A DNA stretch of 64,000 nt from an uncultured Spirochaetota bacterium (GTDB lineage Bacteria > Spirochaetota > UBA4802 > UBA5550), in the NCBI GenBank assembly GCA_963827275.1, contig CAWHAA010000006.1, positions 249,144 to 313,143 of the forward strand, given 5' to 3'. This document shows, in pieces, positions 57,001 through 64,000 of the stretch. Positions within the stretch are counted from its first letter, which is position 1; each line of letters opens with the position of its first letter. The position numbers were made by a program.

Positions 57001-60000
57001 TCCGGCCCGCTCCCTCTTTTTTTTCTGGATCTTCAATGACATCCGCGGTGCGTTTTGATTCGGGCATAGTGAAGTCCATTAATATGACAGCTCCAGCATG
57101 CGGTCAAGGGCCTTCCGGGCGGCCTCACGTACTTCCGGCGCTACCGTTACGACCGTTTTCTCTTCCTGGAGCCCGCGCAGCAGCACCGGGAGCGTTATCT
57201 TTTTCATGTTGGGGCATATAAATGAGCCGGCTGCAGGTATATATTCTATGTGGGGCGCGACGCTCTTCAGCTTGTGGATCATCCCTATTTCGGTCCCGAC
57301 GATAATCTTTTTCCTGTCAGTGGATTGCACGAATCTGACCATGTGACCGGTGGAGAGGACCTCGTCCGCCATGTCGATCACGTCCGGCCTGCACTCGGGA
57401 TGCACCATGACCAGGGCGTCCGGGTGCTGTTTTTTAACAGCGGCAAGGTCTTCCACCGTGAATTTTTCATGGGTAGGGCAAAACCCCTTCCAGGCGATGA
57501 TCTTCTTCTTGGTAAAGCGCTGCACATAGCTCCCGAGGTTTTTGTCCGGAAGGAAAAGGATGGTGTCAGCCTCGACCCGTTCAACGATTTTAAGCGCATT
57601 CGACGAGGTGCAGATGACGTCGGACTGCGCCTTGACCGCCGCGGTCGAATTGATATAGGTAACGACCATGGCGCCCGGATGCTCTCTCCTGAGCCTGATT
57701 ACGTCTTCGGCATCAACCATGTCGGCCATGGGGCAGCCTGCCGTCGGGTCCGGGATGATCACTTTTTTTTGCGGAGAGAGAATGGCGGCCGACTCGGCCA
57801 TGAAATGAACACCGCAGAACACGATCATGGACGCGTCGTTTTTCGCCGCGATCTGCGAAAGTTCAAGCGAATCGCCGCTGAAATCCGCCACGTCCTGCAC
57901 CTCGCCCACCTGGTAGTTGTGGGCAAGTATGATGGCATTTTTTTCCTTTGCCAGCTTTTTAATCTGTTCGGATATATTCATCTCGCGGCCATTTTATAAT
58001 TTTATAAAAGTAACATTTTACGGCAATGGTCATTTTTTTTGATCGACAGTTATCAGTTTGTTTATAGTATTGTCGAGACATAATAAATTATCAACATAAA
58101 AATAGGCTGGAAAAACAAATTTTTCTAAAAAATAATTGACACCATTTATATGGGCAATCAAGTTACCTGAGAAATATATTCCCCTGTAGCTCAGTCGGTA
58201 GAGTCCCGACAAGGTCGGGATTAACCACTGGACGAAGGTGAATGATGATGTGAATATTCCCCTGTAGCTCAGTCGGTAGAGTCCCGACAAGGTCGGGATT
58301 AACCACTGGACGAAGGTGAATGATGATGTGAATATTCCCCTGTAGCTCAGTCGGTAGAGTCCCGACAAGGTCGGGATTAACCACTGGAATCGAAGGTGAA
58401 TGATGATGTTGAGCATATTCCCCTGTAGCTCAGTCGGTAGAGTCCCGACAAGGTCGGGATTAACCACTGGACGAAGGTGAATGATGATGTGAATATTCCC
58501 CTGTAGCTCAGTCGGTAGAGTCCCGACAAGGTCGGGATTAACCACTGGACGAAGGTGAATGATGATGTGAATATTCCCCTGTAGCTCAGTCGGTAGAGTC
58601 CCGACAAGGTCGGGATTAACCACTGGATCGAAGGTGAATGATGATGTGAATATTCCCCTGTAGCTCAGTCGGTAGAGTCCCGACAAGGTCGGGATTAACC
58701 ACTGGATCGAAGGTGAATGATGATGTGAATATTCCCCTGTAGCTCAGTCGGTAGAGCAAGTGGCTGTTAACCACTGGGTCGTAGGTTCGAGTCCTACCGG
58801 GGGAGCATCCCTAAAGCAACGATCAATGATTGTTGCTTTTTTTATTCCAATGAAACAATATTACACCTACATCCTGCAATCTGAATCAACAGGCAAATAC
58901 TACATTGGCCACAGCCATGACCTGGAACAACGCATATTGCAGCACAATACCCATTCTTTCTCAGGCTCAGTTTCAACGAAAAGACTTATGGGCCCATGGA
59001 AACTGGTTTTTCAGGAATCTTATGATACGCGTTCAGAAGCGATGGACCGTGAAAAACAGATCAAGTCATGGAAAAGTAAACAAGCAATTCAAAGGCTGAT
59101 AGACAGTCGGTAGAGTCCCGACGCAGTCGGGATTAACCACTGGGTCGCAGGTTCGAGTCCTACCGGGGGAGCATGGGCGCTTTTCGAACTCCGGAAAGCG
59201 CCTTTTTTATTTACCGACCATTATTGTAGCGATTATTGACAAAATGGTTGGTTCGAATACTGTCTTCCCGCTACATTACGATAAGACTCGAACTTCATAA
59301 TTTTTTCGGCAAGTATACCCTATTAGCACAAGGCGGCAATCCATCCCCCATTTCACAAATCAAGTAACATTGAAATAGTAATTGACAGTCACATACATTA
59401 TGCATATATTATATGTATGCATAATTTTTCAAAGCATAGTCTGAATAGACTCGATGAGCGCAAATTTTCCAAGGAATCGATAGAATCAATCCTCAACAAA
59501 GAAGTTGATGTTGTTATTTACCCGAGCACGAGGGATGAAGACATTGACCTCTATTTCGGGAAATACGTAGGCATGTATATACTCGTTGTTTATAACCGTC
59601 AAACTTCAACTATCGTGACTGTCAGAAATATGAGGAAGAAGGAAAAAGAAATTTTCAATGAGGTGATGAGATATGAAAAAGAATAAACAGATTGATGCTT
59701 CATATTACGATAAAACTGATTTGTCCGGCATCATGATGCAAGCCGACAGAAAAAAGAAAGTATACAAAGCCAAAACAAAACGGATCACCATGAACATCAC
59801 ACACGAAGCCTACGAAGACGCCCATGATCTTGATCGGTTTATGGGAATGGGCTATCAGAACGTATTAAAAACTGCAATGGTTATGGGTTTGAAAGATCTT
59901 CATACTATCGTTCTGAGAGAAAAGAAGAAGAAACGGCAGACTGAAAATTGACAATCACTATTCCACCATCCAGATTATGAAATCCAGCAGGATATCATCG

Positions 60001-63000: not shown

Positions 63001-64000
63001 GGAAAGCTGGCTGGAAATGCAAAACAGGCTTTCTCTATGGGAAGCCAAACAGCATAAACCCCGAGTCAAACTATTGGCTGATATGTGTTGTGAAGCATGA
63101 TAGATTTTAATCCTGTTTAGTATCCCACCATCCACATCACCCCCGCCGTATCCCACCCGACGCAGCCCGACCCGGCGAGGACACCCGCCCCTGGCCCGTG
63201 GTCCTGCTCACCGCACTGGGACTGGCTGGCGGTGATTCCCCCTGATCGCCGTCATCGGCATGCTTCTGGGGACTGGATCGCCCGGGACCTCGGCGACTGC
63301 CTGATCGGGGGCCTGATCCTGGCCGGGGCCCTGGTCACCCTGCGCTCCCGAGGCCTGCCCCTGTTCGTGGAGCAGCTTGCCGTCCCGGCACTGCTGGTGG
63401 CTGGGAGCCTGGGCTTCGCCGTGGGGCGCGACCTGCCGAACGCCCTGGCGGCAGTAGCTCGGGGCCCTCGCACTGGCGCTGGCGGCGGCCCTGCCGGCCT
63501 GGTTGGGGTCCTCTTGGGGGCGGCGGCGGCCAGCCTGCTGACACTCGCCCTGATTCTGGCCCTGGAGGCCCGGACTGAGCCTTTGATGGCTCTGTGGGAG
63601 GGTCGGCATGCGGGCTGGGTCGCCCTGCACTGGCCCCTGGGGCCTGGCTGATCGGGCTCTGGGCTCAGCGGAATCTGCTGGGGCAGGGGGCGACCGCGGG
63701 CGCGGCCTCCGCCTCTGAGGCCATGGAGCCGGCTGGCTCCTGGCCGTCCTCGCCGGGCTCGCCCTGCACTCGGGCATGACCATGCTGGTGGGTGCGAGCA
63801 TCGATCCCATGCTTCGGGACCTGGCACAGGGGCTGAACGGGCGCCGCGGTTGGCTGGGCCTTCCCCTGGGCGCCGGCGGGATCGACCGTGCTGGTCTTGG
63901 CCGCGACCCTGTGGGGCGCCCGCGCCTGGCCTGGCCTGGGCCGGCCCTGGGTCCTGGGGGTCGGGGTCGGCATGGCCGCGCTCGCCTGGAGCAATGCGTG

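Follow-up and report, generated by a model that had tools for sequence, protein, structure and literature searches.

Toxin-antitoxin units behind a Spirochaetota tRNA-Asn gene are separated by sequences that match the tail of a large serine recombinase gene

Results

The tRNA-Asn end of the locus

The window, a stretch of 64,000 nucleotides from an uncultured Spirochaetota bacterium (source genome G000, 92% complete), contains at the end of contig C6 an array of small toxin-antitoxin (TA) units behind a tRNA-Asn gene. Plain coordinates are positions in the window; C5 and C10 are other contigs of the same genome. The tRNA-Asn(GTT) gene is intact (58733-58806, plus strand, Rfam 70.7 bits), has the attachment core CCGGGGGAGCA at its end (58797-58807, plus strand), and is followed by the terminator Tb (58813-58839, plus strand). 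The two together represent an attB-type site with the halves B and B', and the same arrangement is present in the island-free genomes G008 and G013. Between a promoter-like region and the tRNA-Asn gene lie seven tandem units of 78-83 nt (58176..58730, plus strand), each built from the tRNA-Asn 5' part, the hairpin tcccgacaaggtcggga, the motif ttaaccactgg, and a spacer. Neither ARAGORN nor Rfam recognises a tRNA in these units, which are outside the cassette array.

Next comes a gene for a GIY-YIG nuclease of 87 aa (58850..59113, plus strand, Pfam 3.1e-18), whose last codons extend into a partial tRNA-Asn copy. This copy reaches from the D-loop to the 3' end, has a variant of the hairpin and an attachment core at 59163-59173, and is joined to another terminator, T, to give an attL-type scar (59104..59212, plus strand). 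On the minus strand, T reads as recombinase codons (KGAFRSSKSAHAP). According to Rfam (E<=1) and ARAGORN the true tRNA-Asn is the sole tRNA within 57900-63300, and the junctions of the array are not recognised. The 20-nt core of these junctions matches a Bacteroidetes tRNA-Pro 3' end in 19 of 20 positions, while no G000 tRNA ends in this way.

Cores, junctions, and cassettes

The 20-nt core GGTTCGAATACTGTCTTCCC is found six times in the window, always on the plus strand, at 59250, 60008, 60112, 61029 (one mismatch), 61864, and 61969; 100 shuffles gave an expectation of 0. With C10:820, 1663, and 2562 the genome contains nine cores, as the first-pass annotation had counted. The surrounding junction repeat occurs at four places each on C6 and C10 with 89-100% identity, the match at C10:3589-3636 comprising the terminator part alone. 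The 11-nt attachment core CCGKGGGAGCA has five copies in the window against 0.10 expected, and marks the end of tRNA-Asn as well as each P-core site. In the following, P denotes the segment in front of the core (C), T, Ta, and Tb are terminators, P-C-T is the P-core-terminator junction, and R-C-Ld is a module with a second core copy.

Directly behind the attL-type scar lies an R-C-Ld module (59213..59295, plus strand, core 59250-59269) without the 11-nt attachment core. R-C-Ld is a second, decayed core site, and its minus-strand frame contains stops in several copies. Cassette A (59417..59951, plus strand) has its own promoter-like site (59382-59410) and encodes a BrnT/DUF4258-like ORF of 89 aa (Pfam 1.4e-3, 19.3 bits, below the cut-off) and an ORF of 92 aa; copies with 83-96% identity are present in G009, L092, L084, and L087. 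It is followed by a P-C-T junction, an attP-like scar whose minus strand reads KGAFRSSKSAHAPTGRQYSNQVVDDILLDFIIWMVE up to a stop (59963..60075; core 60008-60027, attachment core 60026-60036, terminator hairpin 60038-60066), and by another R-C-Ld module (60076..60157, plus strand, core 60112-60131). Cassette B (60240..60969, plus strand) consists of MqsR (60240-60542; Pfam 5.4e-24, 84.9 bits) and MqsA (60544-60969; 6.7e-9, 36.4 bits), and has copies in G003, G011, L087, L091, L083, L084, and L092. The next P-C-T junction (60984..61096, minus strand; core 61029-61048, attachment core 61047-61057, terminator 61059-61087) has no R-C-Ld behind it. Cassette C is on the minus strand (61140..61717) with MazF (61140-61484; PemK 1.2e-28, 99.9 bits), MazE (61478-61717; 2.8e-7, 30.8 bits), and its own promoter-like site (61776-61749). 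A copy with 96-97% identity is located at C10:933-1510, and the cassette is also present in G009 and G004.

A P-C-T junction followed by R-C-Ld (61820..62014, plus strand; core 61864, attachment core 61882-61892, terminator 61894-61922, R-C-Ld core 61969-61988) leads to cassette D (62127..63100, plus strand). It comprises HigB (62127-62429; Pfam 1.2e-33, 115.6 bits), HigA (62432-62767), and an orphan HigA2-type antitoxin (62801-63100), which is the HigA2 antitoxin of another cassette (94% identical) without its toxin. HigA has one extra base near 62714 compared to contigs of three runs, is frameshifted, and has no Pfam match. The Pfam matches at the locus also include HTH_3 (1.4e-5). MqsRA, MazEF, and HigB are type II TA genes, small and adjacent, with profile matches above the curated cut-off. 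The reported array of core-separated TA units behind tRNA-Asn is real, and G000 has at least six of them (A, B, C, and D on C6; C' and E on C10). It does not extend to position 64000 as annotated. The window end (63125..64000) opens with ~10 nt that begin the next P segment (63125-63134), and the sequence from ~63130 on is foreign to the array (72-75% GC, read depth 0-0.44 over 63133-63300). Contigs of X2 and X4 run from 63129 into a P-core-terminator junction (joint 63129 to 61824), and the contig end is probably chimeric over its final ~870 bases. The conserved TTGACA promoter ascribed to the junctions is weak: TTGACA is found in the first junction only, the candidate -10 box TACTGT fits at three of six positions, and a promoter scan gives no site in any junction, each cassette having its own promoter-like site.

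Variation between strains and relatives

Strain variation was read from Logan contigs of other samples (X1, X2, and X4 among them), and relatives were compared across the 17 genomes of the genus, G000 included. The exact core is present in six of the 17, and G004 has a degenerate copy as the seventh genome. Cassette content and order vary between relatives and between metagenome strains: X4 has an array with only cassette D (a contig of 1779 nt), X1 has A next to D, and genomes conflict in A-B versus B-A and H-B versus B-H. The shuffling of cassettes noted before thus holds, the proteins being 83-100% identical across genomes that differ in cassette order. In one X4 contig, T at 59212 is joined directly to 30 letters that by eye match C10:3637 onward, and this contig appears to represent an empty site. 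The public runs yielded strain variants and this one apparent empty-site contig, not circles.

The junction as a recombinase gene tail

The minus strand of P-core-terminator encodes the final ~38 codons of a large serine recombinase (LSR) gene. The coding capacity was analysed with 31 P-type sites, which represent 25 distinct sequences (G000, G003, G005, G009, G011, G012, and seven metagenome loci). One minus-strand frame of these contains no stops while the other two contain 38 and 34. The changes at codon positions 1/2/3 are 34/9/68, and synonymous and non-synonymous differences amount to 44/41 in the coding frame compared to 17/77 and 16/78. In addition, G011 provides a natural contiguous remnant ending in KRSHINKKHVTVSSKTSYSAPKGVQLSNQLLDDILLDFIIWAVEV and a stop. 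The first part of this remnant aligns with residues 459-556 of the G012 LSR at 71% identity; core and P encode the end, and the stop falls at the P boundary. The intact LSRs of G012 and G011 end differently, in SSKTSYPAPPVGLEPTTQWLTATCSTD and a stop, and their last ~20 codons are antisense tRNA-Asn. In the relatives, the LSR gene beside tRNA-Asn crosses the attachment core CCGKGGGAGCA into the antisense tRNA, and in G012 the overlap is 60 nt (LSR ORF L078:5790-7484, tRNA 7425-7498). A full-length LSR with a P-core tail (attP form) was not found, the search for longer proteins giving one protein of 565 aa with 76% query cover. The overall dyad symmetry of the sites was not above that of shuffles (p 0.4-0.99).

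Recombinases and islands in related genomes

The tRNA-Asn gene is adjoined by an intact LSR gene in G011 and G012, by a copy interrupted by an in-frame TAG in G003, and by an LSR gene with 43% identity in G004; LSR remnants are found in G009 and at the array end of G011. The G012 LSR has 565 aa (Resolvase 6.4e-20, Recombinase 1.7e-12), and its matches to the NCBIfam models CcrB (5.8e-17) and CcrA (6.6e-12) are weak and far below the cut-offs. In the relatives, the TA array is the far end of an island of 8-38 kb. G012 has the order NadA, tRNA-Asn, Ta, LSR, ~37 kb of defence-type genes, P-C-T', HigBA, P-C-gggggagca, Tb. In G004 the order is tRNA-Asn, LSR, ~17 kb, T, MazEF, degenerate P-core, Tb, and the flank past Tb shares 74% identity over 319 nt with the sequence that follows tRNA-Asn and Tb in the island-free G008. 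G003 shows tRNA-Asn, the LSR with the in-frame TAG, H-B, and ilvD, whereas in G011 the array is followed by P-core joined to Ta, a truncated LSR, and more island genes. The arrays of relatives had been described as lying away from tRNA-Asn, but those of G012, G003, and G004 are the far ends of islands that start at tRNA-Asn.

All four site combinations were found, namely tRNA with Tb (attB), tRNA with Ta or T (attL), P-core with Tb (attR), and P-core with T or Ta (attP-like), the last accounting for all internal junctions. CCGKGGGAGCA is common to attB, attL, and attR, and the terminator and flank behind attR of G012 and G004 are those located behind tRNA-Asn in genomes without the island. G000 contains neither an LSR homologue (E<=1e-10) nor a PF00239 match. 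Tyrosine recombinases were not detected around the arrays (118 ORFs of five loci; 72 ORFs).

Discussion

Insertion and decay of islands at tRNA-Asn

We think it probable, if by no means certain, that a family of LSR-moved genomic islands has used the tRNA-Asn of this locus as its integration site, and that the junctions are attP-configured remnants of the recombinase gene. Because the separating repeat is a detached LSR gene tail with an attachment site, the stack is most likely no new integron-like system but the trace of mobile islands of a known type that were inserted and decayed repeatedly. The attachment site would lie within the LSR gene itself. The predicted tail of the free (attP) form reads ...SSK(S/T)..AP, then (T/P)GRQYSNQ(V/L)(I/V)DDILLDFMIW... 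and a stop, and on the plus strand of the window it would appear as P segment, 20-nt core, CCGKGGGAGCA, and terminator T. Insertion at the last 11 nt of tRNA-Asn would split the gene: the body would remain next to the tRNA (attL) and then read into the antisense tRNA, and the tail (P-core) would be left at the opposite island end (attR). The junctions in the window would accordingly be LSR genes in attP configuration, reduced to ~38 codons, and each cassette of 0.8-1.9 kb the residue of one insertion with a recombinase stub, a TA operon with its own promoter, and a right end formed by P-core. Units may have been added serially at the tRNA-proximal site by an LSR from a resident or incoming island, comparable to SCC and the Dehalococcoides ssrA islands. 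Recombinase and cargo could later have been deleted with the addictive, possibly phage-defensive TA pairs retained, and recombination between the scar repeats may delete, duplicate, and reorder units. Since the scars are present and a serine recombinase is absent, the G000 array probably no longer moves, short of a recombinase supplied in trans.

Thus, of the proposed cassette platform the tRNA-Asn-anchored stack and the bounding of units by site-specific recombination sites stand, but the site is not of an unknown type and the recombinase not still to be found, as the junction itself is the 3' end of an LSR gene. The likely crossover region is the 11-nt CCGKGGGAGCA of attB, attL, and attR and not the adjoining 20-nt core. 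Several observations count against the island reading. Because G000 is without an LSR, no recombinase can be directly assigned to its array. The G009 array is on a different contig from its tRNA-Asn, between ordinary genes. The second core copy in R-C-Ld before forward cassettes falls outside the attB/attL/attR/attP grammar. The G000 junctions are more alike than the junctions of the same cassette elsewhere, which demonstrates homologous recombination or gene conversion among the scars and obscures their history. A full-length LSR with the P-core tail is missing from the search results, and the dyad symmetry of the sites does not exceed that of shuffles. Finally, units could be stacked only by recombination of the attP x attL type, a reaction that classical serine integrases do not carry out according to PMC3783163.

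Alternative explanations

It could also be that the scars are live, with P-core joined to T being a substrate of an island-borne LSR in trans, recombinase-less TA mini-cassettes being captured, excised, and exchanged singly between strains, and R-C-Ld being their left attachment site. We regard this as unlikely; if true, the system would parallel the integron but use a serine recombinase, with the split 3' end of the recombinase gene serving as recombination site. Similarly doubtful is that one or a few ancestral insertions were followed only by homologous recombination and replication slippage between the 110-190-nt junctions, without site-specific capture of single cassettes. This would cover gain of cassettes from incoming DNA, loss, duplication, and reordering, and is in accordance with the 89-100% identity of the G000 junctions and the missing serine recombinase. 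Also, the block of 8-9 nt before the core is the same in six G000 P copies and differs for the same cassettes elsewhere, and this uniformity within G000 points to concerted evolution. Single-core P-C-Ld junctions in G003 (two), G009 (one), and L084/L092 are expected from deletion between 20-nt direct repeats 105 nt apart. However, the 25 scars vary mostly at third codon positions and have no stop, which better fits descent from separately evolving functional recombinase genes than neutral drift of copies that arose in place. In addition, the conflicting orders need excision and reinsertion or independent acquisition, deletion alone being insufficient, and a truncated recombinase gene still present where the G011 array ends directly attests to island stacking.

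It is hard to reconcile the data with a dedicated integron-like platform, in which another recombinase acts on the 20-nt core or on a 45-47-nt GGTTCGA...TCGAAC unit and moves TA cassettes between cores, and we consider it very improbable. All forward cassettes do lie between R-C-Ld (left) and P-C-T (right), as a P-C-Ld x R-C-T exchange would produce. Five sites have P-C-Ld, the GGTTCGA-TCGAAC spacing is nearly constant (38 in C-Ld, 39-40 in C-T), and the T-R segment has been lost exactly at the core before four different cassettes. Yet R-C-T is absent from all sites compiled, a left core is missing from the reverse cassettes (MazEF, HepT/MNT), the R-C-Ld copies contain stops and look decayed, and the core is accounted for as the recombinase-tail codons GRQYSNQ. 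The array loci scanned contain no candidate recombinase adjoining the arrays, and an excision circle of 105 bp is very small for a protein-mediated reaction. The suggestion that the GIY-YIG nuclease drives exchange, by breaks in the tRNA-like junctions and repair from homologous junctions, is the least credible of all. Its gene does lie between the intact tRNA-Asn and the partial copy, and it weakly matches group I intron endonucleases (1.7e-4, below the cut-off). But homologues in five of the 17 genus genomes are unlinked to the arrays, and none lies within the scanned ~20-kb array loci. Only two of the six exact-core genomes have one, G000 and G009 (41% identity, different contig), and G003, G005, G011, and G012 have none.

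Comparison with known systems

With LSR island insertion and decay as the explanation, an integron-like array is accounted for without a new recombination system, and a simple diagnostic emerges: the opposite strand of an att repeat can be translated and checked for a recombinase tail. Serine-recombinase island stacking would be extended from Dehalococcoides and staphylococci to Spirochaetota and tRNA-Asn. The end state would have TA operons as sole survivors between scars, consistent with addiction or defence modules being lost last, and the split gene and full site grammar make tail-dependent regulation and attP x attL recombination testable.

Integrons and CALINs, including the Vibrio superintegrons, have the same look as the array: small TA-rich units, promoter-bearing or promoterless, in variable order and with a repeated site. 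In contrast, the sites here are near-identical to each other instead of structure-conserved and sequence-variable, and are fragments of a serine recombinase gene. IntI had been reported absent, and indeed the ORFs within 55805-63100 and those scanned at the array loci of relatives have no PF00589 match, and 59101-63130 contains 0 attC box pairs (RYYYAAC ... GTTRRRY, 47-144 nt apart). The only integron-integrase-like gene of G000 is on C5, where there is probably a true integron with unrelated attC sites.

SCC elements target rlmH with paired CcrAB or CcrC and have lengths of tens of kb, and to our knowledge their att site is not inside the recombinase gene; in these points they differ from the tRNA-Asn array. 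Composite SCC islands and ccr-less pseudo-SCC (compare 10.1101/336396 and PMC13739063) are similar in being stacked elements split by site copies, some without recombinase, and in the targeting of the 3' end of a conserved gene by large serine recombinases. TA pairs on tRNA-integrated islands resemble island-stabilising modules such as HipAB, described as stabilising the composite island CGI48 at tRNA-Trp in Shewanella (PMC8978831). Retention as stabilising modules would explain why TA pairs outlast the rest of an island. Unlike the CGI48 type, up to at least six different TA families are found here at one island end, in separate scar-bounded units.

The second kind of cassette system that had been proposed is not needed, as tandem serine-recombinase islands with recombinase-less units are known from SCC and, in the account of McMurdie et al. 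2011 (PMC3146451), from Dehalococcoides ssrA. There, the islands follow a tRNA-like gene in tandem, with direct repeats of the gene's 3' end as their boundaries, and a CcrB-like serine recombinase, DsiB, is encoded on the reverse strand next to attL; the recombinase here is similarly placed and sized (~540-565 aa). The dsiB gene overlaps attL/attP, and its stop codon is therefore set by neighbouring sequence. Some Dehalococcoides units lack the integration module, and the authors discuss cis-mobilizable elements and accretion (PMC3146451). The differences are the target (tRNA-Asn, not ssrA) and the phylum (Spirochaetota), and neither a DsiA-like second recombinase nor a six-gene integration module was identified here. 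Also unlike Dehalococcoides, the recombinase-less units here are single TA operons of 0.8-1.9 kb, an extra decayed core site (R-C-Ld) stands before forward units, and each unit retains ~38 recombinase codons in attP configuration.

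The array downstream of tRNA-Asn

Downstream of tRNA-Asn(GTT) (58733-58806) the 20-nt core GGTTCGAATACTGTCTTCCC occurs six times in the window, always on the plus strand, with 0 copies expected by chance. In the whole source genome G000 (4.13 Mb in 11 contigs, 55% GC, 92% complete) the only further copies are three at the beginning of contig C10. Between the repeats lie four gene units with a GC content of 35-43%: unit A with a BrnT/DUF4258-like ORF (1.4e-3, below cut-off) and a 92-aa ORF, unit B with MqsR and MqsA, unit C with MazF and MazE on the minus strand, and unit D with HigB, HigA with a frameshift, and an orphan HTH_3 protein. 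At C10:1-3650, where the array continues, lie another MazEF unit, a pair resembling HepT/MNT, and a 173-aa ORF. The HigA frameshift (62432-62767) results from one extra base near 62714 compared to the contigs of three sequencing runs (X1, X4, X8), and the HigB toxin gene is intact. From about 63130 the GC content jumps to 72-75%, the switch falling inside a junction repeat, and the four runs compared barely cover 63130-64000. Because contigs of two other samples run on from 63129 into a normal junction, the last ~870 bases of the window are treated as a probable chimeric contig end of this metagenome-assembled genome.

Seven tandem units of 78-83 nt (58176-58730) separate tRNA-Asn from a promoter-like region ahead of it. 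Each is composed of nt 1-24 of tRNA-Asn, a hairpin of 17 nt in place of the 5' anticodon-stem strand, ttaaccactgg, and a spacer. A single similar unit was seen by eye ahead of tRNA-Asn in the island-free genome G008, and the hairpin variant recurs in a partial tRNA-Asn copy at 59104-59174. A segment of ~370 bp (58807-59174) with terminator Tb and an 87-aa GIY-YIG gene is located between the intact tRNA-Asn and this partial copy, into whose D-loop sequence the last codons and the stop of the GIY-YIG ORF fall. The segment resembles a small insertion or a duplication at this gene, and contigs of runs X1 and X8 have the same arrangement with no difference.

Anatomy of the junctions

An alignment of every junction copy in six genomes and in metagenome contigs divides the junction into modules. 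Module P is ccaccatccagatcatgaaatccagcaggatatcatc plus 8 variable nt, C is the 20-nt core, and T, with four copies in the window, is (g/t)gggagca with a strong terminator hairpin behind it. Ahead of forward cassettes only, there are in addition R (~40 nt), a second core, and Ld (gcagcattacgataagactcgaact). The modules combine to P-C-T at most sites, to R-C-Ld, and to P-C-Ld (two sites in G003, one in G009, and L084/L092), and none of the aligned sites is R-C-T. The attachment core of R-C-Ld has a gap of 3 nt and its recombinase frame is interrupted by stops; the module resembles a degenerate form of core plus T. The junction matched no Rfam family at E<=1, and the dyad symmetry of 20-25-bp half-sites is not above that of shuffled sequences (p 0.39-0.99). 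The TTGACA promoter of the first-pass annotation is weak: a promoter scan gives 0 junction sites, leaving a promoter role of the R-C module unsupported as well, and every cassette has its own promoter-like site.

The junction as the tail of a recombinase gene

The minus strand of T-core-P reads ...KGAFRSSKSAHAP(T/P)GRQYSNQ(V/L)(I/V)DDILLDFMIW..., with a stop at or just past the P boundary. For a coding test, 31 P-type sites were reduced to 25 distinct sequences, omitting the degenerate copy of G004 as well as L085, L088-L090, and L093, whose contigs overlap others in the set. The tail frame of these 25 sequences contains 0 stops, while the two alternative frames of the minus strand have 38 and 34. 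Deviations from the consensus are distributed 34/9/68 over codon positions 1/2/3, and synonymous to non-synonymous differences amount to 44/41 versus 17/77 and 16/78 in the other frames. Because the variation is mostly at third codon positions, it suggests that the scars derive from separately evolving functional recombinase genes. The type of recombinase can be read from a natural remnant. At the array end of G011 an open frame shares 71% identity with the large serine recombinase (LSR) of G012 over residues 459-556 of the latter, and carries on through a T-like terminator, core, and P to ...SSKTSYSAPKGVQLSNQLLDDILLDFIIWAVEV*. Judged by this sequence continuity, the protein encoded by the junction is an LSR. 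Two negative results count against an LSR origin of the array. A full-length LSR of the attP form (tail ...DDILLDFMIWMVE*) was not found; there is one 565-aa match only, which is weak evidence. The source genome, at 92% completeness, contains no serine recombinase, and its tyrosine recombinases (two Xer-like genes, one integron-integrase-like gene on contig C5, and one fragment) are not near the array.

Islands in related genomes and attachment sites

On a 4.8-Mb contig, G012 has the order NadA, tRNA-Asn, terminator Ta, LSR, ~37 kb of cargo, P-C-T', HigBA, P-C-gggggagca, and terminator Tb. Its LSR has 565 aa with Resolvase and Recombinase domains, and is convergent with tRNA-Asn with an overlap of 60 nt, so that the last ~20 codons are antisense tRNA. 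The cargo (L077/L078; G012:C2:3702401-3736000) is of defence type and comprises UvrD/NERD, an AAA_11/12 helicase, HNH, McrBC, an AAA_5 ATPase, an Eco57I/TaqI-type methylase, a PLD-SNF2 helicase, DUF2779, WYL, patatin, SSB, and others. From reading the sequences, Tb of this island resembles the terminator directly after tRNA-Asn in the source genome and in the island-free G008 and G013. In G004 the corresponding position is taken by an LSR gene whose product is 43% identical, followed after ~17 kb by T, MazEF, a degenerate P-core, and Tb. Past Tb, 319 nt of the flank share 74% identity with the sequence behind tRNA-Asn of G008. In G003 the order is tRNA-Asn, an LSR gene with one in-frame TAG, ~5 kb, cassettes H-B (H, a further cassette, is also listed for G011 and L087), and ilvD. 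The arrays of the relatives had been placed in other neighbourhoods than tRNA-Asn, but given the anatomy of these three islands they are the far end of tRNA-Asn-anchored islands. A point against the LSR-island reading is G009, whose array is on a different contig from its tRNA-Asn; flank searches for its empty site in five genomes gave no usable synteny. A conserved 231-265-aa ORF is found directly ahead of the first array junction in G003, G011, and one metagenome contig (L026:8033-8725, L027:7920-8714, L091:6167-6961). It has no Pfam or NCBIfam match, and its best Atlas score is 0.77 with no convincing neighbour.

All four att combinations are present: attB as tRNA|Tb, attL as tRNA|Ta or T (with scars including 59104-59212 and C10:3566-3636), attR as P-core|Tb (e.g. 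C10:2562), and an attP-like P-core|T at every internal junction. Because attB, attL, and attR share the 11-nt CCGKGGGAGCA, the crossover would lie there, adjoining the 20-nt core and not inside it. The distance from GGTTCGA to GGGAGCA is 5 nt greater in P-core than in tRNA-Asn. According to PMC3783163, a zinc-ribbon motif is shifted by 5 bp between attP and attB, which the GGTTCGA offset would fit; the shift on the right arm, however, is only 3 nt (offsets 34, 37, 39-40, 42-43), and the 5-nt offset is only suggestive.

Origin of the array

The array probably arose by stepwise insertion at the tRNA side. A new element would insert at the tRNA-side site of a resident one, creating an internal P-core|T junction. 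The array end of G011 is in such a P-core|T-type state, with a truncated recombinase gene that is still recognisable. Later loss of recombinase and cargo would reduce each unit to its toxin-antitoxin operon between a stub of ~13 codons (T) and the right end (P-core). The third-position variation among the scars fits such an origin by insertion and deletion, and so do the conflicting cassette orders: A-B-C-D...C'-E in the source genome (C' and E on C10), A-C-D in G009, B-A-D in L092, H-B in G003 and G011, B-H-A in L087, D in G012, C in G004, and tRNA|T-E in L094. Contigs of other bioreactor or sediment samples include one array with D only and one A-D adjacency. In one contig the letters after 59212 match the flank from C10:3637 onward when the two strings are compared by eye, and this contig appears to represent the empty site.

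Recombination among the scars is clearly also at work because the junctions within the source genome are homogenised, as seen in the alignment of copies across genomes, four different cassettes have lost the T-R segment ahead of them precisely at the core, and cassette D carries the antitoxin of cassette H without its toxin. The constant placing of R-C-Ld ahead of forward cassettes is not accounted for by LSR scars.

The first-pass annotation had read the locus as an integron-like cassette platform with the GIY-YIG nuclease as candidate recombinase. However, the locus is without integron features, and no attC boxes were found; the GIY-YIG gene is present in 5 of 17 genomes, yet in only two of the six with the exact core. 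A probable chromosomal integron is located elsewhere in the source genome (C5, about 39540-46000; L100:5543-12001). Its 399-aa tyrosine recombinase comes nearest to models of integron integrases (TIGR02249, 214 bits, not reaching the cut-off of 265). The gene is oriented divergently to an array of short units whose GC-rich repeats contain GTTAAAC and GTTTAAC boxes. This array includes near-identical 472-nt units, and one cassette encodes an Imm63 protein.

A lead to tRNA-Pro was abandoned. Exact core matches outside the genus are either coding coincidences, in cyanobacteria and one Acidobacteriota genome, or belong to an intergenic element of Bacteroidetes, and none has the P segment. In our translation the cyanobacterial matches share the conserved reading DGSSTVFP, presumably a PstS-like motif. 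In four Bacteroidetes assemblies (L029, L030, L039, L042) the intergenic element contains the exact core together with the C-to-A difference that sets it apart from tRNA-Pro, and a tRNA-Pro(TGG) gene lies ~180 nt away on the opposite strand. It is speculation that a recombinase tail once captured a tRNA-Pro end.

Comparison with known systems

A literature search, mostly by titles and the beginnings of abstracts, returned no stack of toxin-antitoxin mini-cassettes at tRNA-Asn or in spirochaetes. Tandem stacks of elements are known for Ccr-type enzymes (SCC). Classical serine integrases, according to PMC3783163, do not recombine attP with attL, which counts against a stacking of elements; tandem stacks are nevertheless known, besides the Ccr type, for DsiB-type enzymes, as described in PMC3146451. 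The architecture agrees with that of the Dehalococcoides ssrA islands (PMC3146451) in each feature compared: both these and the islands of the relatives have a reverse-strand LSR adjoining attL, an LSR gene overlapping the att site, and direct repeats of the 3' end of the target gene, and the Dehalococcoides islands, like the arrays described here, consist of tandem units of which some are without a recombinase.
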